NCBI RefSeq assembly: GCF_004118375.1
Contig: NZ_SDHX01000001.1
Span: 1,095,693 to 1,119,692 of the forward strand
DNA: 24,000 nucleotides
From: Oleiharenicola lentus
Lineage (GTDB): Bacteria; Verrucomicrobiota; Verrucomicrobiia; Opitutales; Opitutaceae
Direction: 5' to 3'
Of the stretch, positions 2,591-21,756 are shown one piece after another; position 1 is the stretch's first letter, and each line of letters begins with the position of its first letter. Below the pieces are notes generated by a model. That model ran no database searches. It worked only from the letters and a program-made list of their open reading frames with translations, and was not told the DNA's origin. The position numbers and the translations under genes are program-made.

Positions 2591-2604
2591 TTGACCCGCA
2601 TCAA
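2591..2604 (+). promoter_or_regulatory. FNR/Dnr-type box 1 (TTGACCCGCATCAA, then ggc)
   Basis: Matches TTGAT-N4-ATCAA. GATAAT lies at 2627-2632, a 22-bp spacer after the box. The ATG of the downstream gene is at 2638. Confidence 0.65.
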
Positions 2605-2637
2605 GGCCGGGCGCGGCGGGATTGACGATAATGGGTC

Positions 2638-3450
2638 ATGTCCACCGCCACGCTGCCCATTCCTTCGTTCCCGCTCCAACGGCCGGTTCCGGTTGCTTCG
2701 GTGTTTCTGCCGAAGGAGCACGGCTCGTGGTCGCTCGCGCTGGAACCGCTCGCGCTCGGCCTGCTGGTTGCGCCGTCGTGGGCGGGTGGGGCGTTGGCCG
2801 GGGCGGCGGTGACGGGGTTCTTTGCCCGGCGGCCGCTGAAGGCGGCCCTGGATGCAACCCCTTCTCTTCGGCGCCAGGCAGCACGGCGGGCCCTGGCCCT
2901 GTTGGTCGTGCTGGCTGGCGTCGGACTGGTTCAATCGCTCGTGCTCTCGCCGTGGACCGCCTTCTGGCCGCTGCTGCCGGCGGCGGCGCTGGGTTTGGTT
3001 TTCGTCTGGTTCGACGCGCAGGGTGAATCCCGCGCGGCGGCGGCCGAGGTGGCGGGCAGCGCGGCGTTCGCATTCGTGCCCGCGGCATTCGTCACGCTTG
3101 CCGGCGGCGACGCGCCAACCGCCTTCGCGCTCGCAGTCCTCGCGCTCGCCCGCAGCGTGCCGGCCGTGCTCGCCGTGCGCTCCTACCTCCGGATGGCGAA
3201 AGGCGGGGCTCCGCGCCGCACGCTCTCGCTGGTCGCGGCGGCGGTCGCGCTCCTGGCTTCGCTCGGCCTGGTGCTGACCGCCCACATGCCTTCCGTCGCC
3301 GTTCCGCTGGCGGTGGTCCTTTTTGCCCGGGTCCTCTGGCTGCTGGGCCCGTGGCGTCCGACCTGGCCGGCCAAACGGATCGGCATGATGGAAGCCGCGC
3401 TCGGCCTGCTCTACGTGGCGCTGCTCGGCCTCGGCTGGCCCGCTGTGTGA
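2638..3450 (+). CDS. YwiC-like polytopic membrane protein
   Basis: The N-terminal LPKEHGSWSLALEPLALGLL resembles the P-x-x-HGAW motif that opens YwiC-like family proteins. About 8 hydrophobic segments. Sits immediately upstream of nirK, behind its own box. Confidence 0.5.
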   Translation: MSTATLPIPSFPLQRPVPVASVFLPKEHGSWSLALEPLALGLLVAPSWAGGALAGAAVTGFFARRPLKAALDATPSLRRQAARRALALLVVLAGVGLVQSLVLSPWTAFWPLLPAAALGLVFVWFDAQGESRAAAAEVAGSAAFAFVPAAFVTLAGGDAPTAFALAVLALARSVPAVLAVRSYLRMAKGGAPRRTLSLVAAAVALLASLGLVLTAHMPSVAVPLAVVLFARVLWLLGPWRPTWPAKRIGMMEAALGLLYVALLGLGWPAV

Positions 3451-3461
3451 AGCGCCAACCT

Positions 3462-3475
3462 TTGATCCGTATCAA
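3462..3475 (+). promoter_or_regulatory. FNR/Dnr-type box 2 (TTGATCCGTATCAA, then ggc), perfect consensus half-sites
   Basis: Perfect TTGAT-N4-ATCAA. TACTCT lies at 3498-3503 (22-bp spacer). The nirK ATG is at 3528. Confidence 0.75.
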
Positions 3476-3527
3476 GGCATCGCCCCGCGCTCTTCGCTAC
3501 TCTCACCCCCCCAGAAACCCAACCGCC

Positions 3528-5027
3528 ATGAAAACATCCCGCGTAATCCCCGCCGCTCTCCTCGCCCTGGTGCTCGCCGCGCCTGCTTTCGCCTCCGAGG
3601 GCCCGACCGATGCCAAGGGCCCGGTCCTGCTGCCGCCCGACGTGCAGGCCCTGCCGGTCGAGCAGGCCATCCTCACCGCGCCACCCCACGTGCCGCCACC
3701 GATCAAGCGCAAGCACGCTGCGCGCGTCGTCGTTAACCTCGAGGTGCGTGAGGTCGTCATGCGCATCGCCGACGGCGCCGAATACACCTTCTGGACCTAC
3801 GGCGGCTCCGTGCCCGGCTCGTTCATCCGCATCCGCGAGGGCGATGTCGTGGAGTTCACGCTCAACAACCACCCGTCCTCGAAGCTCCCGCACAACATCG
3901 ACCTTCACGCCGTCACGGGCCCCGGCGGCGGCGCGGCCTCGACCTTCACCGCGCCGGGCCACGGCTCGAAGTTTACTTTCAAGGCCCTCAACCCCGGCCT
4001 CTACGTCTATCACTGCGCGACAGCGCCCGTGCCCATGCACATCGGCAACGGCATGTATGGCTTGATCCTCGTCGAGCCGAAGGACGGCCTGCCGTCCGTG
4101 GACAAGGAGTTCTACGTCATGCAGGGCGAGTTCTACACTCAGGGCGGCTTCGGCGCCTCCGGCCTGCAGACTTTCGACATGGCGAAGTCCATCGATGAAC
4201 ACCCCACCTATGTCCTCTTCAACGGCTCGGTCGGCGCACTCGTCGGCGACAAGGCCCTGGACACCAAGGTCGGCGACCACGTGCGCGTCTATTTCGGCGT
4301 GGGCGGTCCCAACCTTACCTCCTCGTTCCACGTCATCGGCGAAATTTTCGACAAGGTCTGGACCGAGGGCGGCATGAAATACGCCCAGGAACACGTGCAG
4401 ACGACGATGGTCCCCTCGGGCGGTTCGGCCATCCTTGAGTTCAAGATGGACGTGCCCGGCACCTACGTGCTCGTGGACCACTCGCTCAGCCGCGCGTTCA
4501 ACAAGGGTGCGCTCGGCATGCTCAAGGCCTCCGGTCCCGAGGACCGCGTGATCTACTCCGGCAAGGAGATCGACGCCGTTTATTTCGGTGCCGCCGCCGA
4601 AGAGGGTTCCGCCTCCGCCCGGCGCGAGGCCGAGCTGAAGGCGAAGATCGCGGCCGAGATCAAATCCAACCCCGCCATCGCCAGCCTCACCAAGGAGGTG
4701 CAGCTCGAGCGCGGCAAGCAGGTCTATATGGCCAGCTGCTTCGCCTGCCACCTGCCCGACGGCAAGGGCATGGCCAACGTCTTCCCGCCGCTCGCCGGTT
4801 CCGACTACCTCAAGGCCGACCGCGACCGCGCGATCCGCATCGTGCTCAAGGGCCTCACCGGCCCGGTCACCGTCAACGGCGTGAACTACAACAGCGCCAT
4901 GCCGCCGCAACCGCTCACCGACGAGCAGGTCGCCGACGTGCTCACCTACGTGACGAACAGCTGGGGCAACGAAGGCCCCGCCACCACCGTGGACGACGTC
5001 CGCCGCGTGAAGAACGAGACACACTAA
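3528..5027 (+). CDS. nirK: copper-containing nitrite reductase NirK with fused C-terminal mono-haem cytochrome c domain
   Basis: Signal peptide MKTSRVIPAALLALVLAAPAFA. T1/T2 copper ligands in HNIDLHAV and YVYHCATAPVPMHIGNGMYG (AniA-like class). The C-terminal domain carries CFACH plus a distal SAMPP methionine. The track ORF start (3351) would read through the promoter, so ATG 3528 is preferred. Confidence 0.9.
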   Translation: MKTSRVIPAALLALVLAAPAFASEGPTDAKGPVLLPPDVQALPVEQAILTAPPHVPPPIKRKHAARVVVNLEVREVVMRIADGAEYTFWTYGGSVPGSFIRIREGDVVEFTLNNHPSSKLPHNIDLHAVTGPGGGAASTFTAPGHGSKFTFKALNPGLYVYHCATAPVPMHIGNGMYGLILVEPKDGLPSVDKEFYVMQGEFYTQGGFGASGLQTFDMAKSIDEHPTYVLFNGSVGALVGDKALDTKVGDHVRVYFGVGGPNLTSSFHVIGEIFDKVWTEGGMKYAQEHVQTTMVPSGGSAILEFKMDVPGTYVLVDHSLSRAFNKGALGMLKASGPEDRVIYSGKEIDAVYFGAAAEEGSASARREAELKAKIAAEIKSNPAIASLTKEVQLERGKQVYMASCFACHLPDGKGMANVFPPLAGSDYLKADRDRAIRIVLKGLTGPVTVNGVNYNSAMPPQPLTDEQVADVLTYVTNSWGNEGPATTVDDVRRVKNETH

Positions 5028-5055
5028 AACGGTAGCGGCGCTCTATGAACGCCGT

Positions 5056-5074
5056 CGGCGGTCACAGACCGCCG
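5056..5074. repeat. intergenic GC hairpin CGGCGGTCacaGACCGCCG nested inside a 9-bp outer inverted repeat (GTAGCGGCG 5032-5040 / CGCCGCTAC 5070-5078)
   Basis: The complementarity was read directly. It lies between the nirK stop and the nirV-like start. No T-run follows. Confidence 0.4.
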
Positions 5075-5091
5075 CTACAACCAACCCTCCC

Positions 5092-5958
5092 ATGACTGCC
5101 ACCGTCCGCCGCGTCCGCCCTCCCGTCTGCGGCTCCGCCCTGTGTAACGTAATACGTTACACATGTGCCGGGGTGGCGCTCTTGGTGTTGACGGGCGTGG
5201 CCTTGGGTGGATCGGAAATCGAAAATCCTAATTCAAAAATCGAAAATGCCGCCATGCGGATGGTGCCGTCCGGCACCTATGTGCCCCTCCAACGCTCGAC
5301 CAAGGACCCCGAGCAGGTGCCCGTCGCCGCCTTCCGGCTCGACACCGCGCCCGTCACCAACGCCGACTTCCTCGCCTTCGTCACTGCCAACCCGAAGTGG
5401 CGTCGCTCCGCCGTGAGCCGGCTTTTCGCCGACACCTCCTATCTGGAGCACTGGACCGGCGACCTCGAGCCCGGCTTGCGCGCTCCGCTCGACGCCCCCG
5501 TCGTGCGCGTGTCGTGGTTCGCCGCGCGCGCCTACGCCCGCTGGTCCGGCAAGCGCCTGCCCAGCACCGCCGAGTGGGAACTCGCCGCCGCCGCCGGCTA
5601 CACCACCGCCTTCGGCAAGAACGAACCCGACTTCAACCGCGACCTCTACGCCTGGCTCGCCCGCCCGGTGCCGGAGGTGCTGCCCTCGGTCGCCACCGCC
5701 AAGCCCACGCTCCACGGCGTGCGCGGCCTGCACGGTCTCGTGTGGGAATGGGTGGACGACTTCAACACCGCCATGGTCACCGGTGAATCGCGCGCCGACA
5801 CCGGTCTGGAGCGCGACCTCTTCTGCGGCGCCGGAGCCGCCGGGGCGAAGGAGACGAGCGACTACGCCGCCTTCATGCGCTCCGCCCTTCGTGCCTCCCT
5901 GAAAGCCAACAACACCACCACCTCGCTCGGCTTCCGCTGCGCGGCTTCTCTCCGATGA
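5092..5958 (+). CDS. nirV: FGE-sulfatase/SUMF1-family protein, NirV-like
   Basis: MVPSGTY...RVSWFAARAYARWSGKRLPSTAEWELAA...GLHGLVWEWVDD...LGFRCA are the conserved blocks of the formylglycine-generating-enzyme fold. Position directly after nirK matches the known nirK-nirV arrangement. Confidence 0.7.
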   Translation: MTATVRRVRPPVCGSALCNVIRYTCAGVALLVLTGVALGGSEIENPNSKIENAAMRMVPSGTYVPLQRSTKDPEQVPVAAFRLDTAPVTNADFLAFVTANPKWRRSAVSRLFADTSYLEHWTGDLEPGLRAPLDAPVVRVSWFAARAYARWSGKRLPSTAEWELAAAAGYTTAFGKNEPDFNRDLYAWLARPVPEVLPSVATAKPTLHGVRGLHGLVWEWVDDFNTAMVTGESRADTGLERDLFCGAGAAGAKETSDYAAFMRSALRASLKANNTTTSLGFRCAASLR

Positions 5959-6722
5959 AAACGACGATTCCCCTGATCACCCTCCTCTTCGCGGCCAGCA
6001 TCGCCGCCTCCGACAAACCCGCCGCCTGCTGCCCGGCCGACACCAAGCCGAAGGCCGGCAGCTGCTGCACCGTTGAAAAGGCGGACAAGGCGGCCTGTTG
6101 CGCGGAAAAGCCCTCCGCCCCGGCCGCGTGCTGCGCGGAGAAGGCTCAACCCGCGGCGTGCTGCGCCCAAGCCGACGCACCCAAGCCCGCCGCCTGCTGC
6201 GAAGAGATCAAGGGCTCCGAAACCACCGCCTTCTCCTCCGAATCGCTTTATCAGCTCGAGGCCGGCTTTACCGACGACCGGGGCCGTTCCTTCACCCTCG
6301 GCTCGCTCCGCGGCCGCCCCGTCGTGCTCACCATGTTCTTCGCCTCCTGCAGCTACGCCTGCCCGCTGCTGCTCACCGACATGCAGGCCATCCATGCGAA
6401 GCTGCCGGCCGACATCCGCGACCGGGCTGCGTTCGTGCTCGTGTCCTTCGACGTTGCCCGCGACACGCCGGCCGCGCTCGCGCAATACCGCGCCGACCGC
6501 CACCTCGACGCGCAGTGGACGCTGCTCCACGGCGACGACGACGCGGTGCGCGAGCTCGCCGCGCTGCTCGGCGTGAAGTTCAAGCAGGAGGCCGACGGCC
6601 AGTTCGCCCACTCCAACCTCATCACCATTCTCAACGGCGGGGGCGAGGTCGTCCACCAGCGCACCGGCCTCCGCGGCGGCCTCGACGAAACCGCCCAGGC
6701 CATCGTGGCCGCGTCGCGCTGA
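5955..6722 (+). CDS. Sco1/SenC-family copper chaperone with Cys-Cys repeat N-terminal extension
   Basis: ATGA start/stop overlap with the upstream gene. Signal/anchor sequence present. Sco thioredoxin fold with VVLTMFFASCSYACP (CxxxC) and a downstream His (FAHSNLI). The region before the fold contains six CC dipeptides. Confidence 0.8.
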   Translation: MKTTIPLITLLFAASIAASDKPAACCPADTKPKAGSCCTVEKADKAACCAEKPSAPAACCAEKAQPAACCAQADAPKPAACCEEIKGSETTAFSSESLYQLEAGFTDDRGRSFTLGSLRGRPVVLTMFFASCSYACPLLLTDMQAIHAKLPADIRDRAAFVLVSFDVARDTPAALAQYRADRHLDAQWTLLHGDDDAVRELAALLGVKFKQEADGQFAHSNLITILNGGGEVVHQRTGLRGGLDETAQAIVAASR

Positions 6723-6852
6723 AACGGTGCTTCGAACCTGAGGAACGTATGCCGGAGGTCACCGAGCAGCTGGTTTCAAGTGGCATGGGTCTCCCGACCC
6801 GTGACCTCGTTCCCCACCGGTCGGCAGCCCCGGGCCAACTCTTCTGCTGCCC

Positions 6853-7281
6853 ATGACCACGGCTCTGCCGCAGATTCTCGATCAGCGCCGGCCCGAGATT
6901 CGGGCGCGGTGGGAGGCGCTGTTGCGCCTTGAAAAACCTGCCACGGCAATGGCCACGCCGGACATCCTCGTCCACCTCTTCGACCACACCCTCGACGACG
7001 TGCTGGCGCCCAAGCGTCCGGCCGGGAAACCGGTCGCCGCCGAGGGCAAACTGCCTGGCCGGTGTCATTGCAATCCGCTGCGCCCGTATTTCGCCACGCT
7101 TGAGCAGGCCCTGCTCGAAGCGCTCATCTGGGCGCAAGCCGCCGACTCCTCCCTCGACGCCGAGACCCGCGTCGCCCAGGTCGGCGAACTTTGCGAACGC
7201 CTGCGCCGCGTTGCGCACCGGGAGATCCTGCTCCTCGACGGCGTCTGCCAGTGCATCTGTGCGGAGTTGCCGCCGGCTTGA
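6853..7281 (+). CDS. hypothetical 142-aa soluble protein with CHC and CQCIC motifs
   Basis: Normal composition and an ATG start. The N-terminus (ILDQRRPEIRARWEALL) is reminiscent of RsbRD_N-type helical sensor domains. Its TGA stop lies inside box 3. Confidence 0.45.
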   Translation: MTTALPQILDQRRPEIRARWEALLRLEKPATAMATPDILVHLFDHTLDDVLAPKRPAGKPVAAEGKLPGRCHCNPLRPYFATLEQALLEALIWAQAADSSLDAETRVAQVGELCERLRRVAHREILLLDGVCQCICAELPPA

Positions 7282-7291
7282 TTCGCGTCAA
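7278..7291 (+). promoter_or_regulatory. FNR/Dnr-type box 3 (TTGATTCGCGTCAA, then ggc)
   Basis: TAGGGT lies at 7314-7319 (22-bp spacer). The azurin ATG is at 7327. Confidence 0.7.
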
Positions 7292-7326
7292 GGCGGGCGC
7301 GCGTCCGGCGCGCTAGGGTGGGGGCG

Positions 7327-7836
7327 ATGAAAATCCATTCCACCCTGATCCTCCCGTTTCTCGCCGCCGGTGCGCTCCTGCTTTCCGCCTGCGGCAAATC
7401 CGAAGCTCCCGCTGCCGCCGCGTCTGCGGCAGCCCCCGCCCCTGATGGCGTGAAAGCCGTCAGCATCACCGCCGACGACAGCATGAAGTTCAGCGTGACA
7501 GAGATCCGCGCCGTGGCCGGCGAGAAGGTGCGCGTAACGTTCAAGAACGTCGGTCGCATGCCCAAGCAGGCCATGGGGCATAACTGGATTTTGCTCGTGC
7601 CGATGGCCGACAATGAAGTGCTCGCGCTCGCCCAGGCGGCCGCCGCCCGCGCGCCGGAATACCAACCGGCCGATGCCACGAAAGTTCTCGCGCACACCAA
7701 GCTGCTCGGGCCCAACGAGAGCGACACCGTCGAGTTCACCGCACCCGCCACGCCCGGCGACTATCCCTTCGTCTGCACCTTCCCCGGCCACGCGGCCCTG
7801 ATGAAGGGCAAACTCATCGTCGCGCCCAAGTCTTGA
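7327..7836 (+). CDS. azu: lipoprotein azurin (type-1 blue copper protein)
   Basis: Lipobox LLLSAC. Azurin signatures AMGHNWIL and YPFVCTFPGHAALMKG supply the His, Cys, His and Met copper ligands. Confidence 0.85.
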   Translation: MKIHSTLILPFLAAGALLLSACGKSEAPAAAASAAAPAPDGVKAVSITADDSMKFSVTEIRAVAGEKVRVTFKNVGRMPKQAMGHNWILLVPMADNEVLALAQAAAARAPEYQPADATKVLAHTKLLGPNESDTVEFTAPATPGDYPFVCTFPGHAALMKGKLIVAPKS

Positions 7837-7846
7837 TGCGCGTCAA
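7833..7846 (+). promoter_or_regulatory. FNR/Dnr-type box 4 (TTGATGCGCGTCAA, then ggc)
   Basis: Overlaps the azurin TGA stop (7834-7836). TACAAC lies at 7869-7874 (22-bp spacer). ATG is at 7882, with GTG at 7879. Confidence 0.7.
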
Positions 7847-7881
7847 GGCCGCGCGCGGCGCGGCCTGCTACAACCTTCGTG

Positions 7882-9300
7882 ATGTCTGCCCCGGCCGCCG
7901 TTCCCCTCGCGTCCCCGACCTTCGTCCCGTCTCCGGCGGTGGCGGCGGCCGGTGCGCGTTTTCCCGCCGCGGCCCGCGGTTGGTTCGCCTTTGGCGTCGG
8001 CAGCCTCGTGCTTGCGGGTCTGCTCTCGCTCCTGCTCGTCGTCGGCCGCCTGCCGTTCCTAGGCTGGCTGTTCACCGACCCGCTGTTCTTCAAACGCGCC
8101 CTCGTGGTGCATGTCGATCTGGCAATCGTCATCTGGTTTCAGGCCGGCGCCCTCGCGTATCTCGCCTGGGCGGTCGGCTCCCGGGTGCCACGCGGCCTCA
8201 CCGTCGCGTCGGTCGTGCTCGCCGGGCTCGGCATCCTTGGCCTGCTGGCCGGCGCGGTGATGCCGGGGGCACAGCCCATCCTCGCCAACTACGTGCCGGT
8301 CGTGGATCACCCGGTGTTTGTTGCCGGGCTCGTGGCGTGGTTCGCCGGCAGCGGCCTGTATTTTGCCGGCGCGCTCGCGGTGCCGGCGGAGCCGTCGGCG
8401 GCGCTGCCCGATGACGCGCTCGTCGCGCTGCGTGCCTCGGCCGCGGCGCACCTCATCGCGCTGGCGACCTTCGCCGCGGCTTGGCGCACGACGCTGCCGG
8501 GCCTGCCGGCCATCGGCTACTACGAGTTGGTGGCCTGGGGCGGGGGACACGTCATGCAGGTCGGCAACGTCGCCCTGATGCTCGGGCTGTGGTTGCTCCT
8601 GCTCCGCCGCTGGTCCGGCGAGAGCGTGGTCTCGCCCGCCACCATCCGCTGGCTGGCGGTGGCGCTGGTGCTGCCGCAGGCGGTGATGCCCTGGGTGGCC
8701 TGGGGCGGCACGTCGCGGCCGGCTTATTCCGAGATCGCGACGCAGCTGATGCGATGGACGATTTTCCCCGTGGTTCTGATCGTGCTCGGCCTGGGTATCC
8801 GGCACGTCGTGCGGCATGCGGCGAACCGCTCCGCCGGGGGCGGCTGGCGCCTCGTCGGCCTCGCCGGCAGCGCGCTGCTCACCGTGCTGGGCTTCGTGCT
8901 CGGCGCCTTCATCCGCGGCTCCAGCACGCTCGTGCCGGGCCATTACCACTGCGCCATCGGCGCAGTCACTCTCGCGCTGATGACGGCGGCCTACGACTTC
9001 AGCCGCGAGGCCGCGCCGCGCGCCCTCGGCCCGTCGCCGCGGCTCATCCGCTGGCAGCTCGTGCTCTTCGGCGCGGGGCAGGCCGTGTTCGGCCTCGGCT
9101 TTGCACTGGCCGGCGCCTTCGGCCTCGGGCGCAAGCAATACGGCGTCGAGCAGCATGTGCGCTCGCTCGGCGAATACCTCGGCCTCGGCGTGATGGGCCT
9201 CGGCGGTCTCGTGGCGGTGGCCGGCGGCCTCCTCTTTCTCGCCGTCATGCTCCGCGGTCTCGCGGCGTGGCGCACGCGTTCCCTTTCCCCCTCACCATGA
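7882..9300 (+). CDS. divergent 12-TM heme-copper-oxidase subunit-I paralog lacking the helix-VII His-His pair
   Basis: Clear block homology to the subunit I at 10033: ANYVPVVDHPVF vs TSYLPLLAHPAF, WGGGHVMQVGNVALMLGLWLLL vs WGLGHQSQQVNVCAMVAVWYLL, and VPGHYHCAIGAV vs IPGHFHVTVVGG. The helix-II His (VVHVDLAIVIWF) is kept. No HH is present where SAHHLL sits in the paralog. Confidence 0.7.
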   Translation: MSAPAAVPLASPTFVPSPAVAAAGARFPAAARGWFAFGVGSLVLAGLLSLLLVVGRLPFLGWLFTDPLFFKRALVVHVDLAIVIWFQAGALAYLAWAVGSRVPRGLTVASVVLAGLGILGLLAGAVMPGAQPILANYVPVVDHPVFVAGLVAWFAGSGLYFAGALAVPAEPSAALPDDALVALRASAAAHLIALATFAAAWRTTLPGLPAIGYYELVAWGGGHVMQVGNVALMLGLWLLLLRRWSGESVVSPATIRWLAVALVLPQAVMPWVAWGGTSRPAYSEIATQLMRWTIFPVVLIVLGLGIRHVVRHAANRSAGGGWRLVGLAGSALLTVLGFVLGAFIRGSSTLVPGHYHCAIGAVTLALMTAAYDFSREAAPRALGPSPRLIRWQLVLFGAGQAVFGLGFALAGAFGLGRKQYGVEQHVRSLGEYLGLGVMGLGGLVAVAGGLLFLAVMLRGLAAWRTRSLSPSP

Positions 9301-9446
9301 AAAACGAATCCGAAAAACACCCCTGGCAGAAGGTCCTCGACAATCCGTGGCTGCTCCTGGCCCTCGGCGTCCTCGTGCCCTTCCTGTCCTACACCGCGTG
9401 GGGCTGGATCGAGCTCCTGCTCATCAAGCCCGCGCAGCTCCCCTGA
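9297..9446 (+). CDS. 49-aa single-TM membrane peptide (possible small oxidase subunit)
   Basis: ATGA overlap with the upstream stop. Sequence MKNESEKHPWQKVLDNPWLLLALGVLVPFLSYTAWGWIELLLIKPAQLP has one hydrophobic helix. It forms the last 49 codons of track ORF 8481..9446; the rest of that ORF is an Arg/Pro-rich artefact. Confidence 0.5.
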   Translation: MKNESEKHPWQKVLDNPWLLLALGVLVPFLSYTAWGWIELLLIKPAQLP

Positions 9447-9458
9447 ACCGCCGCCGCC

Positions 9459-10010
9459 ATGAGCCTCCGCCCTCTCACCTCCCCCTGGTTCCACGCCCCC
9501 GCCGGCCATGAAAAGCTCTGGCTCGGTGTCGCCATTCTCTGGTGCTTCGTGATGTCGCTGATGATGCCCTACTGGCACTTTCGCGGGAAACAGAACAGCT
9601 CCGGCGAGGCCTACGCCGTCATGCCCGCCGATTTTCTCGCGCGCACCGAGAAATTCGTCGAGGCCAACCGCGTCGGCACCTTCAAGAACCCCACGCCCAA
9701 CGCCTTCGCGGCCGAGCTGCCGCTGGTGGAGCCGCCGGCCGGCGGCGACGCCTACCTCGTGGGCCGCATGTGGCAGTGGTATCCCGCGCTGCGCCTGCGG
9801 CAGGGCGAGACCTACCGCATCCACCTCTCCGCGCTCGACCTGCAGCACGGCTTCTCGCTCCAGCCGCTCAACATGAATTTCCAGGCCGTGCCCGGCTACG
9901 ACCACGTGCTCACGCTCACGCCCACGTCGAAGGGCGAGTTCACCATCGTCTGCAACGAATTCTGCGGCATCGGGCACCACGCGATGACCGGCAAGATCTT
10001 CGTCGAATAA
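9459..10010 (+). CDS. HCO subunit II with complete CuA site (cupredoxin domain, one N-terminal TM helix)
   Basis: CuA ligands are present: DLQHGFSL (His) and CNEFCGIGHHAM (C-x-E-x-C-G-x-x-H-x-x-M). Confidence 0.8.
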   Translation: MSLRPLTSPWFHAPAGHEKLWLGVAILWCFVMSLMMPYWHFRGKQNSSGEAYAVMPADFLARTEKFVEANRVGTFKNPTPNAFAAELPLVEPPAGGDAYLVGRMWQWYPALRLRQGETYRIHLSALDLQHGFSLQPLNMNFQAVPGYDHVLTLTPTSKGEFTIVCNEFCGIGHHAMTGKIFVE

Positions 10011-10032
10011 CCCCGCGACCCTCCCGCCTCCC

Positions 10033-11858: not shown

Positions 11859-12821
11859 ATGCTCATCCCCGCCCACGCCCCTGACGCCCCGCCGGCCGCT
11901 GCCTCCGCCGGCTCCCGCTTCTTCACCGGACCGGGCCTGCTGGTGTTTTTGGGCGCGGCGCTGACCGGCTACGAGGCGTTCCTGCTGCTGACCATCTTCG
12001 GCCCGACCGGAGAGGGTGCGCTGGGCGGCTTCGTGCGGGATTTCCAGCAATGGTGCTACCAGGGCGACCCGCGCACGGGCGGCATGTCGTGGGCCGCCGT
12101 CAGCATCATGTTGCTCGAGCCCGTCATGGTCGTGCTCGTGGCCGGAGTGCTTTGGCGCGATACGGTGGTGCAGCTGCGCTCGCCGGCGCTGTGGCTCCGC
12201 CACCTGCGGGCGGCGGCGGCCGGCCTGGTCGTGGTCGCGGCCGCGGTGGCCGGGCTGGTCGGGTATGCGCAGAGCGATCGTGCCGGCGGGGCTGTGCTCC
12301 CGCCGTTTCCCGGCGAACGCATCCGCGTGCAGCTTGCGGTGCCTGACAAGCCGCTCGTGGACCAGAAGGGCACGCCCTTCCGCCTCGCCGACCTGCGCGG
12401 GCAGGTGGTGCTCGTGACCGGCGTCTATGCCTCATGTTCGACGGCGTGCCCGGAAGTATTCAAGGAGCTGCGCGCCGTGCTGGGCGAACTGCCCGCCGCT
12501 GACCGCGCCGGGTTGCACGTCGTCGCGCTGTCGCTCAACCCCGAATACGAGACTGCCGAGATCATGGACGCCATGGCCGGCGCGCAGGGGCTGGCGTTTC
12601 CCGAGTTCCGTTACGTCAATGGCGAGCGCCCCGACGAGATGCGCGACCTGCTCAAGAGCCTGCAGTTCTCCGTCACGCGCGATCCGGAGACGGGGGTCCT
12701 GAATCACGCGAATCTCTTCCTACTGATTGATCGCGAGGGCCGCATCGCCTTCCGCTTCACGCTCGACCCGCGCCACCGCGCCTGGCTGCGCGAGGGCCTG
12801 CTGCACCTGCTCCGCGAATGA
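11859..12821 (+). CDS. membrane-anchored Sco1/SenC-family protein (multi-TM N-terminal domain plus Sco fold)
   Basis: VVLVTGVYASCSTACP (CxxxC) and a downstream NHANLFLLID His. Three to four N-terminal TM helices. Confidence 0.75.
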   Translation: MLIPAHAPDAPPAAASAGSRFFTGPGLLVFLGAALTGYEAFLLLTIFGPTGEGALGGFVRDFQQWCYQGDPRTGGMSWAAVSIMLLEPVMVVLVAGVLWRDTVVQLRSPALWLRHLRAAAAGLVVVAAAVAGLVGYAQSDRAGGAVLPPFPGERIRVQLAVPDKPLVDQKGTPFRLADLRGQVVLVTGVYASCSTACPEVFKELRAVLGELPAADRAGLHVVALSLNPEYETAEIMDAMAGAQGLAFPEFRYVNGERPDEMRDLLKSLQFSVTRDPETGVLNHANLFLLIDREGRIAFRFTLDPRHRAWLREGLLHLLRE

Positions 12822-14969: not shown

Positions 14970-15019
14970 GGCGGCGCCCCGCTTCCGGTGCTATCCTGTC
15001 CGCCTCACGTGAACCACCG

Positions 15020-15253
15020 ATGAAACCAAGCCATTTCAAGACCTTCGATGTCCGGCCGCTGCTGGCGCGCGGCGAGGAGCCCTTCGATGCCATCCGCTCG
15101 CGCGTGGATGCGCTTGCGGCGGGGCAGGGCGTCACGATCCTCGCGCCCTTCATGCCCGCGCCTCTTATTGAGCTGCTGAAGAGCGAAGGCTTCGCGTCCG
15201 CGATGGAGCACCGCGCCGACGGCGCGTGGGCCGTGAGTTTCTGGCGGGAGTGA
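15020..15253 (+). CDS. DUF2249-domain protein (77 aa)
   Basis: FDVRPLLARGEEPFDAIRSRVDALAAGQGVTILAPFMPAPLIELL...GAWAVSFWR matches the DUF2249 pattern (DVR, then short helices, then P-x-PL, then W-x-V). This family commonly accompanies hemerythrin/NO-responsive genes. Confidence 0.6.
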   Translation: MKPSHFKTFDVRPLLARGEEPFDAIRSRVDALAAGQGVTILAPFMPAPLIELLKSEGFASAMEHRADGAWAVSFWRE

Positions 15254-15341
15254 GACGGCCGCGTGTGACGAAAACTTTTCCAACAAGGGCTTGGCGCGCG
15301 CACGCGGGCCGCTCTTACTGGGGTCGTTGCTCTGACTTGCG

Positions 15342-15818
15342 ATGACCCTGCCCCCGCCTCGCACCCGCATGCTTCTGCTCGTGGCCATCGCCGCCACGCT
15401 GGGACTGTTCGCGGGCCTCGGCGGCTATACGTTTACCTACGCGCACGGGCTGTCGTATTTTTCCAACGACCCCACGGCGTGCGTGAACTGCCACATCATG
15501 CGCGAGCAGTTCGACGGCTGGCTGAAGGGCCCGCACCATGCCGTCGCCACCTGCAACGACTGCCACACGCCGCACAGCTTCATCCCGAAATACCTCAGCA
15601 AGGCCGAAAACGGCTTCTGGCACTCCAAGGGTTTCACGCTCCAGGATTTTCACGAGCCGATCATCATCCGCAAACGGAACATCGCCGTGCTCCAGGAAAA
15701 CTGCGTGTCCTGCCACCAGCAGATCGTGGATGGCATCAACACCCACCCCGGCGACCCGCAGAAGATGCTCGATTGTCTCCATTGTCACCGCGAGGTCGGC
15801 CACGGGCCGATGAAGTGA
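15342..15818 (+). CDS. nrfH: NrfH/NapC-family membrane tetrahaem cytochrome c quinol dehydrogenase
   Basis: N-terminal TM helix. Four CxxCH motifs: CVNCH, CNDCH, CVSCH, CLHCH. Typical size of about 160 aa. Confidence 0.85.
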
Positions 15819-15834
15819 ACTTTCATTCAACCGC

Positions 15835-15965
15835 CACGAATGAACACGAATACACTCGAATCAGAACCAACCCAACGCGCGCGTCATCCTGAGCCGTGCG
15901 AAGGATCCAAGGGGAAGTCGCATCACGCGCCGTCTGCCTGGATCCTTCGCTGCGCTCAGGATGAC
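15835..15965. repeat. composite intergenic repeat element: three tandem 10-mers, then an imperfect 27-bp inverted repeat
   Basis: Tandem 10-mers CACGAATGAA / CACGAATACA / CTCGAATCAG occupy 15835-15864. GTCATCCTGAGCCGTGCGAAGGATCCA (15883-15909) pairs with TGGATCCTTCGCTGCGCTCAGGATGAC (15939-15965). GC content is locally lower than in the flanks. Confidence 0.65.
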
Positions 15966-16038
15966 GGTGCGGGGAGTTTTGCGACGTTCGGGTCGTTCAT
16001 CCGTAGATTTATAACCTAGCTGCCTCGCCCCTCCCGCC

Positions 16039-17505
16039 ATGAAAACCACCCCCGACTCCCGTCAGCACGGCCTCGCCACCTGGGCGCTCATCGCGATCCT
16101 CGCCGCCACGGCCGGCGCCACCTTTCTCACGCTGATGCTCTACCAGAACATCGTCGCCCGGAAGGCCGAGGCCACCAAGGACGTGTTCCGCGTCGTCGAG
16201 GTGAGCGACGAGACCGTGGACCCCGCGATCTGGGGCAAGAACTACCCGCGCCAATACGACAGCTACCGGCGCACCGTGGACACCGAGCGCACGAACCACG
16301 GTGGCAGCGAGGCCTTCCAGCACCTCGACAAGGATCCGGTGTGGCGCCGGCTGTTTGCGGGCTACGCCTTCGCCGTGGATTACCGCGAGGAACGCGGCCA
16401 CGCCTACATGCTCATCGATCAGCGCGAGACGGAGCGAGTGAAGAACTTCAAGCAGCCCGGCGCCTGCCTCCAGTGCCACGCCTCCGCGGTGGACACCTAC
16501 CGCAAGGAGGGCATCAAGGCCGGCATCCCCGCGGGCAAGGAGCATTGGGAAGAGCAGATTCAGAAGGGCTTCGAGGTCGTCTGCGCCATGCCCTACAGCG
16601 AGGCGACCAAACTCGTGGAGCATCCGGTCTCCTGCATCGACTGTCACGACGCCGAGACCATGAACCTGCGCGTCAACCGCCCCGGCTTCCTCAACGGCAT
16701 CCGCGCGCTCGCCAATTCCGACTACCCGACGCCGCACCTGCCCAGCATCGAGCGCTGGCGCAAGGACGGTCGCAAGGGGCGCTATGAGCCCAACTCGGAC
16801 GCCACGCGCCAGGAAATGCGCTCGATGGTCTGCGCGCAGTGCCACGTCGAATATTACTTCAAGGGCGACAAGAAGCTCGTGACCTACCCGTGGGACAAGG
16901 GCCTGAAGGTCGAGCAGATCGAGACCTACTACAACGAGGTCGGGCACACCGACTTCAAGAACAAGGAGAGCGGCGCGCCCATCCTGAAGGCCCAGCACCC
17001 GGAGTTCGAGATGTGGAGCCAGGGCATTCATGCCCGCAGCGGTGTGGCCTGCGCCGACTGCCACATGCCTTATGTCCGCGAGGGCGCCATCAAGGTCAGC
17101 AACCACCATGTCCGCTCCCCGCTGCTCAACGTCGCCCAGGCCTGCCAGTCCTGTCACCGTATCCCCGAGCAGGAAATCAAGGCGCGAGCGCTCCTTGTGC
17201 AGGACCGCAACGCCGCGCTGCTCACGCGCGGCGAGGCGGCGGTGGTCGGCCTGTTGGACGCCATCGCCTTGGCCCAGAAAGCCGGCGCCACCGACGATCA
17301 GCTCAAAACCGCCCGAGACCTGCACCGCAAGGCGCAGTGGCGCCTCGACTTCGTGGCGGCCGAAAACTCGATGGGCTTCCACGCCCCGCAGGAGGCTGCG
17401 CGCATCCTCGCCGAGGCGATCGACTATGCCCGCCAGGGCGAAATCGCCGTTGCGAAGGAGACCAGGCCGGCGGGCGGCGGTGCCGTTGCGGGCGCCCTGA
17501 AGTAA
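16039..17505 (+). CDS. nrfA: pentahaem cytochrome c nitrite reductase NrfA (CxxCH active-site variant)
   Basis: Signal/anchor sequence present. Five haem motifs: CLQCH, CIDCH, CAQCH, CADCH, CQSCH. CAQCHVEYYF is the conserved NrfA Ca-site/active-site block. Confidence 0.9.
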   Translation: MKTTPDSRQHGLATWALIAILAATAGATFLTLMLYQNIVARKAEATKDVFRVVEVSDETVDPAIWGKNYPRQYDSYRRTVDTERTNHGGSEAFQHLDKDPVWRRLFAGYAFAVDYREERGHAYMLIDQRETERVKNFKQPGACLQCHASAVDTYRKEGIKAGIPAGKEHWEEQIQKGFEVVCAMPYSEATKLVEHPVSCIDCHDAETMNLRVNRPGFLNGIRALANSDYPTPHLPSIERWRKDGRKGRYEPNSDATRQEMRSMVCAQCHVEYYFKGDKKLVTYPWDKGLKVEQIETYYNEVGHTDFKNKESGAPILKAQHPEFEMWSQGIHARSGVACADCHMPYVREGAIKVSNHHVRSPLLNVAQACQSCHRIPEQEIKARALLVQDRNAALLTRGEAAVVGLLDAIALAQKAGATDDQLKTARDLHRKAQWRLDFVAAENSMGFHAPQEAARILAEAIDYARQGEIAVAKETRPAGGGAVAGALK

Positions 17506-17590
17506 GTTCGGGTGGCATGGGTCTCCCGACTCATGCTGCCGCGCGCCGAATGGATCGCGGGTCGTGAGATCCGCGGCACATCGCCAAAAC

Positions 17591-18820
17591 ATGAATCGCG
17601 GCACGCCCACAGTAATTCCCGAATTCCCGCCCGACGCCTCGCTGGCCCGGCGCTTCCGCGTCGCGTGGGGGTTCTTGCTCGTCTCCGTCCTGATTGGCCT
17701 CGGCTTGCGGCTCCAGTGGGTGTGGCCGTGGACGACGCTGGAATACAACCACCTGCTTCACGCGCACTCGCACGTCGCCTTCCTCGGGTGGGTGTTCAAC
17801 GCGTTTCTGGTCGTCGCGCTGCGGCATTTCGTGCCGCCGGAGGAGACGCGCGACTACGACCGGATCTGGTGGGCGATGCAGCTCGCCGTGCTGGGCATGC
17901 TGGGCACGTTTCCCTTCCAGGGCTACGCCCCGGCCAGCATCGCTTTTTCCACGCTGCACATGGCCGCGGCGTTCGTGTTCGCGGTGAAGCTCTGGCGCCG
18001 GAACCGCGCGGTCCCGGCGGCGCGGCCGCATCTGCGGCTGGCGCTCGCGTTTATGATCCTGTCCGGCGGCGGGCCGCTCGCCCTCGGCGTGTTGCCGGCG
18101 CTGGGGCTGCGCGAGTCGCCCGCCTACACGCTCGCGATCTATTTCTACCTGCACTGCCAATACAACGGCTGGTTTCCGTTTTTCCTGCAGGCCCTGCTGC
18201 TGCAACGCGCGCAGGAGCGGGGCTGGCGCGTGGATGACACCGCCGCAACCGGCGCCGCGTGGTGGCTCGCCGTCGGCGGGTTACTGACCTTTGCGCTTTC
18301 GACGCTTTGGTGCGGACCGCCGGCCGTGGTCGGCTGGATTGCGGTAGCGGGCGGCGTGATGCAGGCTGTCGGCGCGGTGCGTTTTGTCTGCGCCGTGCGC
18401 GGCGTGCCTTTGCCGGCTGACCGAGTCGTGCGTTTGTTGGCGTTTGTTGCCCTGGGGGCCTGGCTGCTCAAACATGTCCTGCACCTTGCCGGCCCCTGGC
18501 CCGGGCTCGCCGAACTCACCCAGCAGCGCTTCGTGGCCATCGCCTTCCTGCATCTCGTTTTTCTCGGTCTCGTGACGCCCGCTCTGCTTGTCTGGGCGCA
18601 CGGGTGCGGTTGGTTGCCGGCCGGAGCGCGGTTGCGGTTGGGCGCGGGTCTGTTGCTCGCGGGCACGGCGATCACGGAGTCTTTGCTGGTAGTGCCGACC
18701 TTCGTGGGTGGTCTGCCGTTCGGCTGGATGCTGCCGCTGCCCCTGTTGGTCGCCTCCGCCCTTATCGTGGCGGGGGTGGCGGTGCTCCGGCCGCGCGGGT
18801 CCGATTTGCCGGCGGCATGA
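17591..18820 (+). CDS. 12-TM His-rich membrane protein, family uncertain (possibly NnrS-like)
   Basis: About 12 hydrophobic segments. His motifs within helices: LLHAHSHVAFLGW, STLHMAAAF, YFYLHCQYNGWF, AFLHLVFLG. ATG 17591 is preferred over 17564. Its TGA stop lies inside box 6. Confidence 0.35.
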   Translation: MNRGTPTVIPEFPPDASLARRFRVAWGFLLVSVLIGLGLRLQWVWPWTTLEYNHLLHAHSHVAFLGWVFNAFLVVALRHFVPPEETRDYDRIWWAMQLAVLGMLGTFPFQGYAPASIAFSTLHMAAAFVFAVKLWRRNRAVPAARPHLRLALAFMILSGGGPLALGVLPALGLRESPAYTLAIYFYLHCQYNGWFPFFLQALLLQRAQERGWRVDDTAATGAAWWLAVGGLLTFALSTLWCGPPAVVGWIAVAGGVMQAVGAVRFVCAVRGVPLPADRVVRLLAFVALGAWLLKHVLHLAGPWPGLAELTQQRFVAIAFLHLVFLGLVTPALLVWAHGCGWLPAGARLRLGAGLLLAGTAITESLLVVPTFVGGLPFGWMLPLPLLVASALIVAGVAVLRPRGSDLPAA

Positions 18821-18830
18821 CCTGCGTCAA
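18817..18830 (+). promoter_or_regulatory. FNR/Dnr-type box 6 (ATGACCTGCGTCAA, then ggc)
   Basis: TAGGGT lies at 18853-18858 (22-bp spacer). ATG is at 18876. Confidence 0.55.
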
Positions 18831-18875
18831 GGCGCGCGGCGCGGCCTTGGGCTAGGGTGGGGCGTTCGCCATGCC

Positions 18876-19340
18876 ATGAGAACCACCCTCTATTATACCT
18901 TGCTGACGCTCCATATTCTCGGCGCCACGATTTGGACCGGCGGACACGTCGTGCTGGCCACAACGGTGTTGCCGCGGGCGCTGCGCGCAAAACGCGCATC
19001 TATCCTCACCGATTTCGAGCAGGGCTACGAACGCGTCGGCATGCCCGCTTTGGCCGTGCAGATTGTCACCGGTCTGTGGCTGGCGCACCGGCTGCTCGGC
19101 GCGCCGGCGAACTGGTTCAGCGACGCGCCGCTCGCGCACATCGTGCACGTGAAAATCCTCTGCCTCGCGGGCACTGCCGCGCTGGCGATCCATGCCAAGA
19201 CACGCGTCATCCCGCGCCTCAACGACGACAACCTCCCGGTGATGGCCTGGCACATTGCCGGCGTCACGGGGCTCTCCGTGCTCTTTGTGCTGGCCGGCGC
19301 CAGTGCGCGTCTGGGCGGTTTTCCCTTTTTTCAACCCTGA
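18876..19340 (+). CDS. CopD-like 4-TM membrane protein (154 aa)
   Basis: LTLHILGATIWTGGHVVL resembles the CopD-family L-H-x-L-x-A-x-x-W-x-G-G opening helix. Four TM segments. The in-frame ATG at 18876 follows the box/-10 pair. Confidence 0.4.
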   Translation: MRTTLYYTLLTLHILGATIWTGGHVVLATTVLPRALRAKRASILTDFEQGYERVGMPALAVQIVTGLWLAHRLLGAPANWFSDAPLAHIVHVKILCLAGTAALAIHAKTRVIPRLNDDNLPVMAWHIAGVTGLSVLFVLAGASARLGGFPFFQP

Positions 19341-19352
19341 ACCAAAACCGCC

Positions 19353-19706
19353 ATGTCCGCCGCCCTCCTTCCCTCCGACCAAGCCGCCGTATGCCCGCTG
19401 ACGGCTCCCGCGCAAAATGTAGCCCACGGCATCGTGAGCCAGGCTGTGCTCACCGCGCCCGGCCTGCGCGTGACGCTGTTCCGTTTTGCCGCCGGTCAGG
19501 AACTGTCCGAGCACACGACCCCGGCCCGCGCGCTGGTGCAGGTGTTGGCGGGCGTCTGCGAGTTCACGTTTCCCGACCGCAAACAAAGGATGGTCGCGGG
19601 CGATCTCCTGCACATGCCGCCGAAGCTGCCGCACGCCGTGCGCGCTGTCGAGGATCTGACGATTCTCATCACGCAGGCGACGCCGCCGGCCAAGCCGCTT
19701 GATTAG
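19353..19706 (+). CDS. cupin-domain protein (117 aa)
   Basis: G-x-E-L-S-E-H-T...VLAGVCEFTF...GDLLHMPPKLPHAV fits the two-motif cupin pattern. It starts 12 bp after the upstream gene. Confidence 0.6.
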   Translation: MSAALLPSDQAAVCPLTAPAQNVAHGIVSQAVLTAPGLRVTLFRFAAGQELSEHTTPARALVQVLAGVCEFTFPDRKQRMVAGDLLHMPPKLPHAVRAVEDLTILITQATPPAKPLD

Positions 19707-20440: not shown

Positions 20441-20538
20441 GCCCACGGTGATGCGCGCTCCGTGGCCCGACGGTCAAGTCGCCAGACGGCACACTTCAGG
20501 CGCGACTTGCGCGCAAACCCCGTGCTAGCTTGCGCCCG

Positions 20539-21273
20539 ATGCCGACCGCCCCACGCGCCGCCGATCTCAAGCTAACCGGACTCGTCAGTTCCCTGCGTTG
20601 CTGCCAGCTCTTCACCGGGTTGTCACCGGAGGACCTGGCCGCCATCGCCGGCTTCACTTTGGTGCTGCGGCTGGCCAAGGACGATTATCTCTTCCACGAG
20701 GGCGAATCTTCGCGTGGTTTCTACGTCGTGCAGACCGGCGCGATCAACGTGCACCGCGTGAGCGCCGCCGGCAAGGAGCAGGTCATCCACGTGTTCCGCA
20801 TGGGCGAGTCGTTTGCCGAGGCGGCACTGGCCTCGGCCACCGGTTATCCGGCCAACGCGCGCGCGGTCGAGCCTTCCACCGTGCTGCTGATCCCCAAGGC
20901 CCCCATCCTCGAGCTGATCGGCCGCCGGCCGGATCTCGCGCTGCGCATGCTCGGCTCCATGAGCGCGCACCTGCGCGTGCTGGTGGGCGCCCTGGACGAC
21001 CTCACGCTCAAGGATGTCGAGACCCGCATGCTCAACTGGCTGGTGAAGCACGGGCGTGACGCGAAGGACGGGGTCATCGAGCTGCCCGGCACCAAGCGGG
21101 TGCTCGCGGCAGAACTGGGCACCAGCAGCGAAACGCTTTCCCGCACGCTGGCCCGGTTGCGCGATGACCGGCTCATTACGGTCGCAGCCAAGAGTATCAA
21201 GGTGCACGACGCCGCCCGGCTCGGGTCGATGCTACGCCGCAATCTCGGCGAAGTCGGCGCGCCGGGTGCTTGA
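20539..21273 (+). CDS. Crp/Fnr-family transcription factor, Dnr/NnrR/NssR-like (no FNR-type N-terminal Cys cluster)
   Basis: cNMP-binding-like beta-roll (YLFHEGESSRGFYVVQTGAINVHR...GESFAEAAL). C-terminal HTH TKRVLAAELGTSSETLSRTLARL carries the E--SR recognition motif that reads TTGAT half-sites. The track start at 20530 is TTG; the ATG is at 20539. Confidence 0.85.
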   Translation: MPTAPRAADLKLTGLVSSLRCCQLFTGLSPEDLAAIAGFTLVLRLAKDDYLFHEGESSRGFYVVQTGAINVHRVSAAGKEQVIHVFRMGESFAEAALASATGYPANARAVEPSTVLLIPKAPILELIGRRPDLALRMLGSMSAHLRVLVGALDDLTLKDVETRMLNWLVKHGRDAKDGVIELPGTKRVLAAELGTSSETLSRTLARLRDDRLITVAAKSIKVHDAARLGSMLRRNLGEVGAPGA

Positions 21274-21283
21274 CGCCGGTCAA
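21270..21283 (+). promoter_or_regulatory. FNR/Dnr-type box 7 (TTGACGCCGGTCAA, then ggc)
   Basis: Overlaps the regulator's TGA stop (21271-21273). CATACT lies at 21306-21311 (22-bp spacer). ATG is at 21330. Confidence 0.65.
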
Positions 21284-21329
21284 GGCCCCGCCGGACGTTC
21301 CGGCGCATACTCCCGCAGGAATCCGCCCC

Positions 21330-21746
21330 ATGGCCCTGACCGATCCCGCTCTTCCCGCACCTTTGTTCGACCGCCTCGGTGGTCGTCCGCGTTTGCTGCA
21401 AATGCTGCGGTATTTCTACGCCGACGTCCGTCAGCATCAGGAGATCGCGCCGATTTTTGCCGCGCACATCCACGACTGGCCGGCCCATTTGGAAAAGATC
21501 GCTGACTTTTGGTCGGGCGCGACCGGCGGCCCGGCGCGCTACGCCGGCCCCATGCCCTTCAAGCATGTGTCCCTCGGACTGGAGGAGAGGCATTTCGCGG
21601 CCTGGCTCGGGCTCTGGGCCCGGCATTGCCGCGCCCACCTGCCGGCGCGGGAAGCCGGGGAGCTGATCGCCCTGGCCGAAGGCATCGGCCAGCGGTTGCG
21701 TCAGATCATCACCCTGCACGGCGGCGGAAAATTTCCGCCCGCTTGA
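21330..21746 (+). CDS. truncated haemoglobin (2-on-2 globin)
   Basis: LFDRLGGRPRLLQMLRYFYADVRQHQEIAPIF...IADFWSGATGGPARYAG...KHVSLGLEERHFAAWLGLW follows the trHb pattern: L-x-x-x-GG, then F-Y, then F-W-x-x-x-x-GGP-x-Y, then H. Confidence 0.75.
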   Translation: MALTDPALPAPLFDRLGGRPRLLQMLRYFYADVRQHQEIAPIFAAHIHDWPAHLEKIADFWSGATGGPARYAGPMPFKHVSLGLEERHFAAWLGLWARHCRAHLPAREAGELIALAEGIGQRLRQIITLHGGGKFPPA

Positions 21747-21756
21747 TCCGCATCAA
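21743..21756 (+). promoter_or_regulatory. FNR/Dnr-type box 8 (TTGATCCGCATCAA, then ggc)
   Basis: Perfect half-sites. Overlaps the globin TGA stop (21744-21746). TAGGGT lies at 21779-21784 (22-bp spacer). ATG is at 21796. Confidence 0.75.

Follow-up and report, generated by a model that had tools for sequence, protein, structure and literature searches.

We analysed a 24 kb stretch of DNA (the window; 68% G+C) from Oleiharenicola lentus, a member of the Opitutaceae (Verrucomicrobiota), which carries eight near-identical palindromic boxes of the type TTGAY-N4-RTCAA, a set of genes for nitrogen-oxide metabolism and a gene for a Crp/Fnr-family regulator. A preliminary description, made from the sequence, had taken the boxes for a local regulon of this cis-encoded regulator. 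Genes were called by third-position G+C content and by domain matches (Pfam, NCBIfam), and the latter bore out the gene labels of that description. The order starts with tatC, a divergent gene for a TlpA-like redoxin, a YwiC-like gene and a gene for NirK with a C-terminal cytochrome c. It continues with genes for an FGE-sulfatase (nirV-like), SCO1/SenC, a 142-aa protein, a cupredoxin lipoprotein, a 472-aa membrane protein, a CuA-type subunit II, a haem-copper oxidase (HCO) subunit I, a second SCO, a cytochrome b-4Fe4S-FlpD fusion, DUF2249, NrfH, NrfA and a 418-aa membrane protein. It ends with CopD-like and cupin genes, a divergent histidine phosphatase gene, the Crp/Fnr regulator gene and genes for a truncated globin, RIC (ScdA_N and hemerythrin domains), USP and an AraC/PocR-like protein. 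A pattern search of the window returned every one of the eight boxes at the position first reported for it; they are listed here, with the score on a position weight matrix (PWM) built from the eight sites for three of them.

2591..2607, + strand: Box 1, TTGACCCGCATCAA followed by GGC, in the divergent intergenic region 5' of ywiC; PWM score 22.4
3462..3478, + strand: Box 2, TTGATCCGTATCAA followed by GGC, 5' of nirK; PWM score 21.9
7278..7294, + strand: Box 3, TTGATTCGCGTCAA followed by GGC, 5' of the cupredoxin gene; TGA at 7279-7281 is the stop codon of the 142-aa open reading frame (ORF)
7833..7849, + strand: Box 4, TTGATGCGCGTCAA followed by GGC, 5' of the HCO operon; TGA at 7834-7836 ends the cupredoxin gene as its stop codon
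14956..14972, + strand: Box 5, ATGACCTGCATCAA followed by GGC, 5' of DUF2249-nrfH-nrfA; distal half-site ATGA
18817..18833, + strand: Box 6, ATGACCTGCGTCAA followed by GGC, 5' of the copD-like and cupin genes; TGA at 18818-18820 is the stop codon of the 418-aa ORF
21270..21286, + strand: Box 7, TTGACGCCGGTCAA followed by GGC, 5' of the truncated globin gene; TGA at 21271-21273 ends the regulator gene as its stop codon
21743..21759, + strand: Box 8, TTGATCCGCATCAA followed by GGC, 5' of the RIC gene; TGA at 21744-21746 ends the globin gene as its stop codon; highest PWM score, 23.4

This series is far beyond chance, because the number of matches, their separation on the PWM and their placement outside coding sequence all point the same way. 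Allowing at most one mismatch, TTGAYNNNNRTCAA matches nine times in the 24 kb, compared to a mean of 0.78 and a maximum of 4 in 100 dinucleotide-preserving shuffles, none of which attained nine. The match is exact at six of the eight boxes, those at 14956 and 18817 beginning with ATGA, and GGC directly follows all eight, as had been claimed, while a C directly precedes seven. When the PWM, a check that the preliminary description had proposed, was run over the window, the eight boxes scored 17.6-23.4 and the next-best position 12.2; the maximum score per shuffle (200 shuffles) had a median of 11.4 and a 95th percentile of 15.5. Also the placement between genes or at gene ends holds for every box, all eight falling within the approximately 10.5% of the window that lies outside internal coding sequence. 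The ninth match, TTGATCCTCGTCGA at 4062, lies inside nirK and was discarded as a chance occurrence: one letter of the invariant TCAA is changed, GGC does not follow, and the PWM score is just 12.2.

Each box is separated by exactly 22 nt from a hexamer of the nAnnnT type, TAGGGT occurring three times and TACTCT, TACAAC, TATCCT, GATAAT and CATACT once each:

2627..2632, + strand: -10-like GATAAT, 22 nt past Box 1; the ATG of ywiC at 2638 coincides with the predicted transcription start, and the mRNA is predicted to be leaderless
3498..3503, + strand: -10-like TACTCT, 22 nt past Box 2
7314..7319, + strand: -10 TAGGGT, 22 nt past Box 3; 7 nt, then ATG at 7327 (near-leaderless)
7869..7874, + strand: -10 TACAAC, 22 nt past Box 4; 7 nt, then ATG at 7882
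14992..14997, + strand: -10 TATCCT, 22 nt past Box 5
18853..18858, + strand: -10 TAGGGT, 22 nt past Box 6
21306..21311, + strand: -10-like CATACT, 22 nt past Box 7; alternative TACTCC at 21308
21779..21784, + strand: -10 TAGGGT, 22 nt past Box 8

With a predicted start 7 nt beyond the hexamer, this gap places the centre of the box at -41.5, which is the defining site position of class II promoters activated by Crp/Fnr proteins such as FNR and CRP of E. coli. A scan of the whole window detected no canonical sigma-70 promoter with -35 and -10 elements of the TTGACA/TATAAT type, nor any intrinsic terminator between the units, which fits activator-dependent promoters in a compact co-directional array. 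The predicted transcription units are:

2638..3450, + strand: unit 1, YwiC-like membrane protein
3528..7281, + strand: unit 2, nirK-cytochrome c, FGE-sulfatase (nirV-like), SCO1/SenC and the 142-aa protein without family
7327..7836, + strand: unit 3, cupredoxin lipoprotein (azurin in the preliminary description)
7882..14947, + strand: unit 4, HCO-like 472-aa paralogue, CuA subunit II, B-type HCO subunit I lacking the cross-linked tyrosine (Tyr-less), SCO and cytochrome b-4Fe4S-FlpD fusion
15020..18820, + strand: unit 5, DUF2249, nrfH, nrfA and the 418-aa membrane protein without family
18876..19706, + strand: unit 6, CopD-like membrane protein and cupin
21330..21746, + strand: unit 7, truncated (bacterial-like) globin
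21796..22518, + strand: unit 8, RIC/ScdA-type di-iron repair protein; the unit may extend into the USP gene at 22607-23071

The promoters abut the preceding coding sequence without terminators, since in five of the seven boxes with a co-directional upstream gene the TGA of the box doubles as the stop codon of that gene, and in the other two the stop lies 8 and 11 nt ahead of the box. This overlap may either be selected or simply result from ORFs in GC-rich DNA extending until they meet a first stop codon. On the other side, the ATG of ywiC, of the cupredoxin gene and of the gene that opens the HCO operon lies at most one base from the predicted start. The arrangement of a -10 element, about 7 nt and an ATG recurs at 2627-2640 (ywiC, 5 nt), 7314-7329, 7869-7884 and 20526-20541, the last being the regulator gene itself, which has TAGCTT, 7 nt and ATG (TAGCTTgcgcccgATG). 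Because of this recurring layout, the sequence implies leaderless or near-leaderless mRNAs without a Shine-Dalgarno element at these genes.

To see whether the box is conserved, we compared 80 loci (1.29 Mb, with 10 kb flanks on either side) from Opitutaceae and a few Verrucomicrobiae, which were found as relatives of the regulator and encode it at 64-95% protein identity. The exact motif occurs 110 times in these loci compared to 1.0 in block shuffles, an excess of approximately 100-fold, and versions with one mismatch occur 133 times compared to 30. Counted over the loci that possess the respective orthologue, a box lies 5' of the first HCO-operon gene (unk473) in 24 of 24 loci, of the RIC gene in essentially all 41, of nirK in 21 of 28, of the DUF2249 gene in 28 of 60, of ywiC in 8 of 13, of the trHb globin gene in 8 of 19 and of the copD-like gene in 5 of 9. 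The order box-DUF2249-nrfH-nrfA is retained in loci L004, L005, L032, L044 and L071, and in L049 and L056 the box stands ahead of a porin gene with nrfHA after it. Exact boxes have a density of 16.3 per 100 kb in the nitrogen-oxide islands and of 2.0 per 100 kb in the flanking 700 kb; the motif is eightfold denser in the islands, and the description of the regulon as local is borne out in part, with flanks rather than a whole genome as the reference. Boxes outside the islands mostly precede additional plausible targets, namely genes for qNOR, for YgbA_NO and DGC-domain proteins and for a nitronate monooxygenase, an alginate-export-like porin, a UbiA prenyltransferase (haem O synthase-like) and a NapH/NosR-like Fe-S protein. 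In the more distant Verrucomicrobiae loci, boxes occur in pairs approximately 55 bp apart (L075, 9156-9222; L077, 9161-9230; L079, 9222-9290) between divergent YgbA_NO and DGC-domain genes, about 0.8 kb 5' of the regulator gene, with what appears to be one box per direction.

The logo of 157 gene-oriented instances from these loci reads C-TTGA-YCYGCR-TCAA-GGC, followed by G-n-T-A-n-n-n-T, which is spaced from the box just as it is in the window, the remaining flanking columns holding less than 0.5 bit each. The box is strongly directional: among 156 instances, TAnnnT lies at the exact offset on the gene side in 75 and on the opposite side in 3 (background 0.2% per position), and GGC lies on the gene side in 109 and on the opposite side in 16. 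The C at position 0 has its mirror partner in G15, which is part of the symmetric site, whereas G16 and C17 lack a mirror counterpart, an asymmetry for which a homodimer cannot account. Counted from the predicted start, G16 and C17 lie near -33/-32 and hence within the -35 region, where they are the only conserved bases of the logo, leaving a poor or absent -35. Their position and the missing counterpart suggest that they are probably a residual or vestigial -35, contacted by sigma region 4 of RNA polymerase. The proximal TCAA is invariant in the orthologous boxes, and the distal ATGA is kept 5' of DUF2249 in 18 of 28 and of the copD-like gene in 5 of 5 (all ATGAC). Because the variant is conserved for these two genes, the two ATGA boxes of the window are gene-specific variants and not sloppy copies, which suggests that the DUF2249 and copD-like promoters carry tuned, weaker sites.

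The regulator gene lies between units 6 and 7:

20539..21273, + strand: DNR-like Crp/Fnr regulator, 244 aa, with the Pfam domains cNMP_binding and HTH_Crp_2
21091..21162, + strand: helix-turn-helix TKRVLAAELGTSSETLSRTLARLR, in which E198, S201 and R202 (nt 21130-21144) form the E-x-x-S-R motif

Its product combines a cNMP-binding-like beta-roll (PF00027, 7.9e-20) with a C-terminal Crp-type helix-turn-helix (PF13545, 1.4e-14). It is 100% identical to an annotated Crp/Fnr protein of O. lentus and has hundreds of metagenome homologues at 80-93% identity, several of the close ones labelled "dissimilatory nitrate respiration regulator" by JGI. The best PDB match is DNR of Pseudomonas aeruginosa (3dkw; phmmer E=6e-24, 88 bits), a distant relationship, followed among solved relatives by FNR (45 bits) and FixK2 (34 bits). 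No equivalog cut-off of NCBIfam was reached, the best model being FtrB (94 bits, cut-off 211), with Fnr at 53 bits (cut-off 228) and FixK at 53 (cut-off 300). The recognition helix that had been read from the sequence as E--SR is present as ETLSR, and its E198, S201 and R202 do not vary across 80 orthologues, nor do His72, His84 and His144. The protein has just two cysteines, C21 (kept in 88% of the same set) and C22 (in 74%), by which an iron-sulfur cluster of the FNR type is excluded on sequence grounds.

At least one box was detected in 74 of the 80 loci with a regulator orthologue, within the fetched flanks, and no second Crp/Fnr paralogue was encountered in their 1.29 Mb. The regulator's own promoter region (20447-20538) contains no box, just a GTCAAG half-site and a perfect 10-bp palindrome, and a box lies 5' of regulator orthologues in just 6 of the 80 loci. 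The palindrome, TTGCGCGCAA at 20507-20516, is located 10 nt 5' of the putative -10, resembles a spacerless pair of NnrR-type half-sites (TTGCG/CGCAA) and may serve some other factor as an operator.

Subunit I of the HCO operon (10033-11757, + strand) is nearest to the ba3 enzyme of Thermus in the B family (1.9e-44) and carries Gln (motif GHQSQQ, 10765-10782) at the position of the cross-linked Tyr237 (GHPIVY). Tyr-less, B-derived HCOs with a CuA subunit have been described as putative nitric oxide (NO) reductases (Murali et al. 2024, PMC11214002), and by this criterion the HCO of the window is a putative NO reductase as well; the text of that paper does not allow its placement in eNOR, sNOR or another family. 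The operon opens with a gene (7882-9300, + strand) for a 472-aa protein without a match in Pfam (E<=10) or NCBIfam that shares 25% identity over 411 aa with HCO subunit I (E=6e-14); it keeps the histidine motifs GGGH and PGHYH, has LPQ instead of the AHH pair of subunit I, and was found in 24 related loci, each time with a box upstream. The last gene (12818-14947, + strand) encodes a 709-aa fusion of an N-terminal cytochrome b/b6, a 2x[4Fe-4S] ferredoxin and FlpD (the delta subunit of methyl-viologen-reducing hydrogenase), a candidate for an unusual electron-input module of the oxidase-like complex. For the 142-aa (6853-7281, + strand) and 418-aa (17564-18820, + strand) proteins nothing was found in Pfam at E<=10 or in NCBIfam. 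The latter, encoded 3' of nrfA, is a polytopic membrane protein that contains the motif HAHSH and has an orthologue at the same position solely in L004; a relationship to the 472-aa HCO-like protein was rejected for lack of similarity. A NirK with a c-haem extension is already on record for Verrucomicrobiota (PMC4770552).

Two features lie outside this set. Beyond USP, an AraC-type gene with a PocR-like N-terminal part (~23190-24000, + strand) has a lower GC content and no box and exceeds the window. The sole convincing intrinsic terminator of the window (1284-1307, - strand; 10-bp stem with 7 GC pairs and a T-tract) follows the TlpA-like gene at a distance of approximately 390 nt, a gap that suggests a small uncalled gene or a long 3' untranslated region in between.

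Taken together, we consider it likely that the boxes are the sites of a homodimeric Crp/Fnr-family activator at class II promoters, most probably the DNR-like protein encoded in cis, responding to an NO-linked signal. The activator would occupy the eight boxes, each centred at -41.5 of a promoter with a -10 and no usable -35, and the helix with E198, S201 and R202 would read the TTGA half-sites. In its active state the regulator would recruit RNA polymerase to the eight promoters and thereby switch on approximately 21 co-directional genes, i.e. ywiC, nirK-nirV-SCO, the cupredoxin gene, the operon of the Tyr-less B-type HCO, DUF2249-nrfHA, the copD-like and cupin genes, and the globin and RIC genes; we infer activation and not repression. 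As inducing signal, NO, or NO derived from nitrite, at low oxygen is the most likely candidate, because the regulon comprises a producer (NirK), candidate consumers (the HCO, and qNOR in relatives), a repair protein (RIC), a globin, YgbA_NO and DUF2249. Genes of the YgbA_NO and DUF2249 types recur in NsrR, DNR and NnrR regulons, where we take COG4309 to be DUF2249. Genes of the dnrN (RIC) type belong to NO-response regulons including that of DNR (PMC1274295).

Several points weigh against this interpretation. The placement at -41.5 depends on predicted -10 elements, and the related loci were selected via the regulator gene, so that the co-occurrence of regulator and boxes is partly built in. 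DNR-style haem sensing is not supported residue by residue: His187 of DNR, which we take to be a haem ligand, aligns to the invariant Glu192, and His139, which is important for haem coordination and a proposed ligand (PMC8510549), aligns to Arg146 by phmmer. The NO- or haem-responsive, non-FNR factor of the preliminary description therefore stands as far as the missing cysteine cluster goes, while the haem histidines of DNR are absent and the NO signal is suggested by regulon content; strict membership of the DNR subfamily, with its haem ligands and NO response, is not established. His72, His84 and His144 could be substitute ligands. A tentative possibility is an Opitutaceae-specific DNR-like regulator with an NO or redox chemistry different from that of DNR (His72/His84/His144, Cys21-Cys22), which would co-activate both nitrite sinks from one type of box. 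Finally, the boxes of FNR/ANR and DNR are nearly identical, with PWMs that are almost indistinguishable and overlapping predicted regulons (PMC8510549).

The lost haem histidines, together with the moderately conserved Cys21-Cys22 pair and FtrB, an activator of the FixK cascade, as the best (far under cut-off) NCBIfam model, are what favours a regulator that binds the boxes and senses neither NO nor haem, responding in a FixK-like manner to low oxygen or redox state through its own level, oxidation of Cys21/Cys22 or another ligand. We regard this as unlikely, given the far weaker similarity to FixK2 than to DNR, the absence of fixLJ-like genes from the window, the lack of a box 5' of the regulator gene itself there, the invariant histidines as potential alternative ligands and a regulon whose members produce NO, consume it or repair its damage, with YgbA_NO and qNOR in relatives. 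It is more doubtful still that the sites are genuine FNR-type sites whose main binder is another Crp/Fnr paralogue, O2-sensing and FNR/ANR-like or FixK-like, with the cis-encoded protein secondary or limited to a subset. The shared boxes of FNR/ANR and DNR, the 24 kb of genome in view and the boxes at respiration-related genes of relatives, such as the UbiA gene, are compatible with such a paralogue, but the invariant E-x-x-S-R of the cis-encoded regulator fits exactly this half-site, the regulator accompanies the boxes in nearly all loci without a second paralogue, and the regulon is centred on NO and not on anaerobiosis in general. That the boxes are non-regulatory, i.e. chance palindromes, REP-like repeats or terminator or RNA hairpins, as their palindromic nature and the overlap with upstream stop codons might suggest, is effectively refuted by their abundance over shuffles, the fixed spacing to the -10, the gene-side directionality, a conserved TTGA/TCAA around a variable centre as in a protein site, and a potential stem of just 4-5 bp that is AT-rich and without a T-tract. 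The cis-encoded regulator is thus most probably the cognate binder, a pairing that is supported and not proven, since the loci were chosen via the regulator, FNR/ANR and DNR share their boxes, and the view of the genome is limited to the window.

The closest known counterpart is DNR (DnrD), for which the box consensus CTTGATnnnnATCAAG has been derived in P. aeruginosa, P. stutzeri and beta-proteobacteria (Rodionov et al. 2005, PMC1274295). The logo C-TTGA-Y-N4-R-TCAA-G matches this consensus, and DNR is likewise a Crp/Fnr activator with an E-x-x-S-R helix and without the cysteine cluster of FNR; it targets nirK/nirS, nor and NO-stress genes of the dnrN (RIC) type, of which nirK and RIC recur here. 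By analogy, the system would work as the DNR regulons of Pseudomonas and beta-proteobacteria do, by a textbook mechanism. It differs in belonging to another phylum, in the distance of the alignment and in the lack of the haem ligands His139 and His187. Moreover, the regulon here adds nrfHA (ammonification), has the Tyr-less B-type HCO for cNOR and comprises three proteins without a Pfam family, and no ANR-to-DNR cascade is visible in the window. In class II promoters of E. coli FNR, TTGAT-N4-ATCAA is centred at -41.5 with a -10 and a weak or absent -35, and E209, S212 and R213 read the half-site. The window shares this type of palindrome, the poor -35 and the equivalent E/S/R residues and, going by its predicted -10 elements, would share the position at -41.5, yet the regulator lacks the four [4Fe-4S] cysteines and is a distant match to FNR, and the promoter-proximal GGC is strongly conserved. 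HcpR (HcpR1) of delta-proteobacteria, with the motif wyTTGACnnnnGTCAArw, clusters with DNR and controls nitrosative-stress genes (PMC1274295); its motif is FNR-like as well, its core targets hcp and frdX are absent from the window, and the likeness is by description and not by sequence. NnrR of alpha-proteobacteria (motif ctTTGcgnnnncgCAAag; PMC1274295) is also an NO-responsive Crp/Fnr activator (nirK, nor, nnrS), whereas its box is TTGcg-N4-cgCAA and not TTGAY...RTCAA; an NnrR box is ruled out by an A at position 4 and a T at position 11, each in 154 of the 157 instances. FixK is set apart by its weaker similarity and the absence of fixLJ from the window.

A literature search returned no described DNR or FNR regulon of Verrucomicrobiota and nothing specific on the nitrite physiology of O. 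lentus. As the same site precedes nirK, the putative NO reductase and nrfHA, the sequence implies that the competing nitrite-reducing pathways share an activator site and would be co-induced, denitrification, with release of N2O, and ammonification, with retention of nitrogen, being switched on together. The two sinks would be NirK with the Tyr-less B-type HCO, leading to N2O, and NrfHA, leading to ammonium. The regulon also nominates three proteins without family, including the degenerate paralogue of HCO subunit I, as components of NO metabolism, and provides a testable regulatory map of nitrogen-oxide metabolism for the Opitutaceae, whose related loci come from freshwater, groundwater, soil and wastewater metagenomes. 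If true, the fate of nitrite in bacteria with both pathways would not be settled at transcription initiation, which bears on the ecological question of what decides this fate in such organisms.

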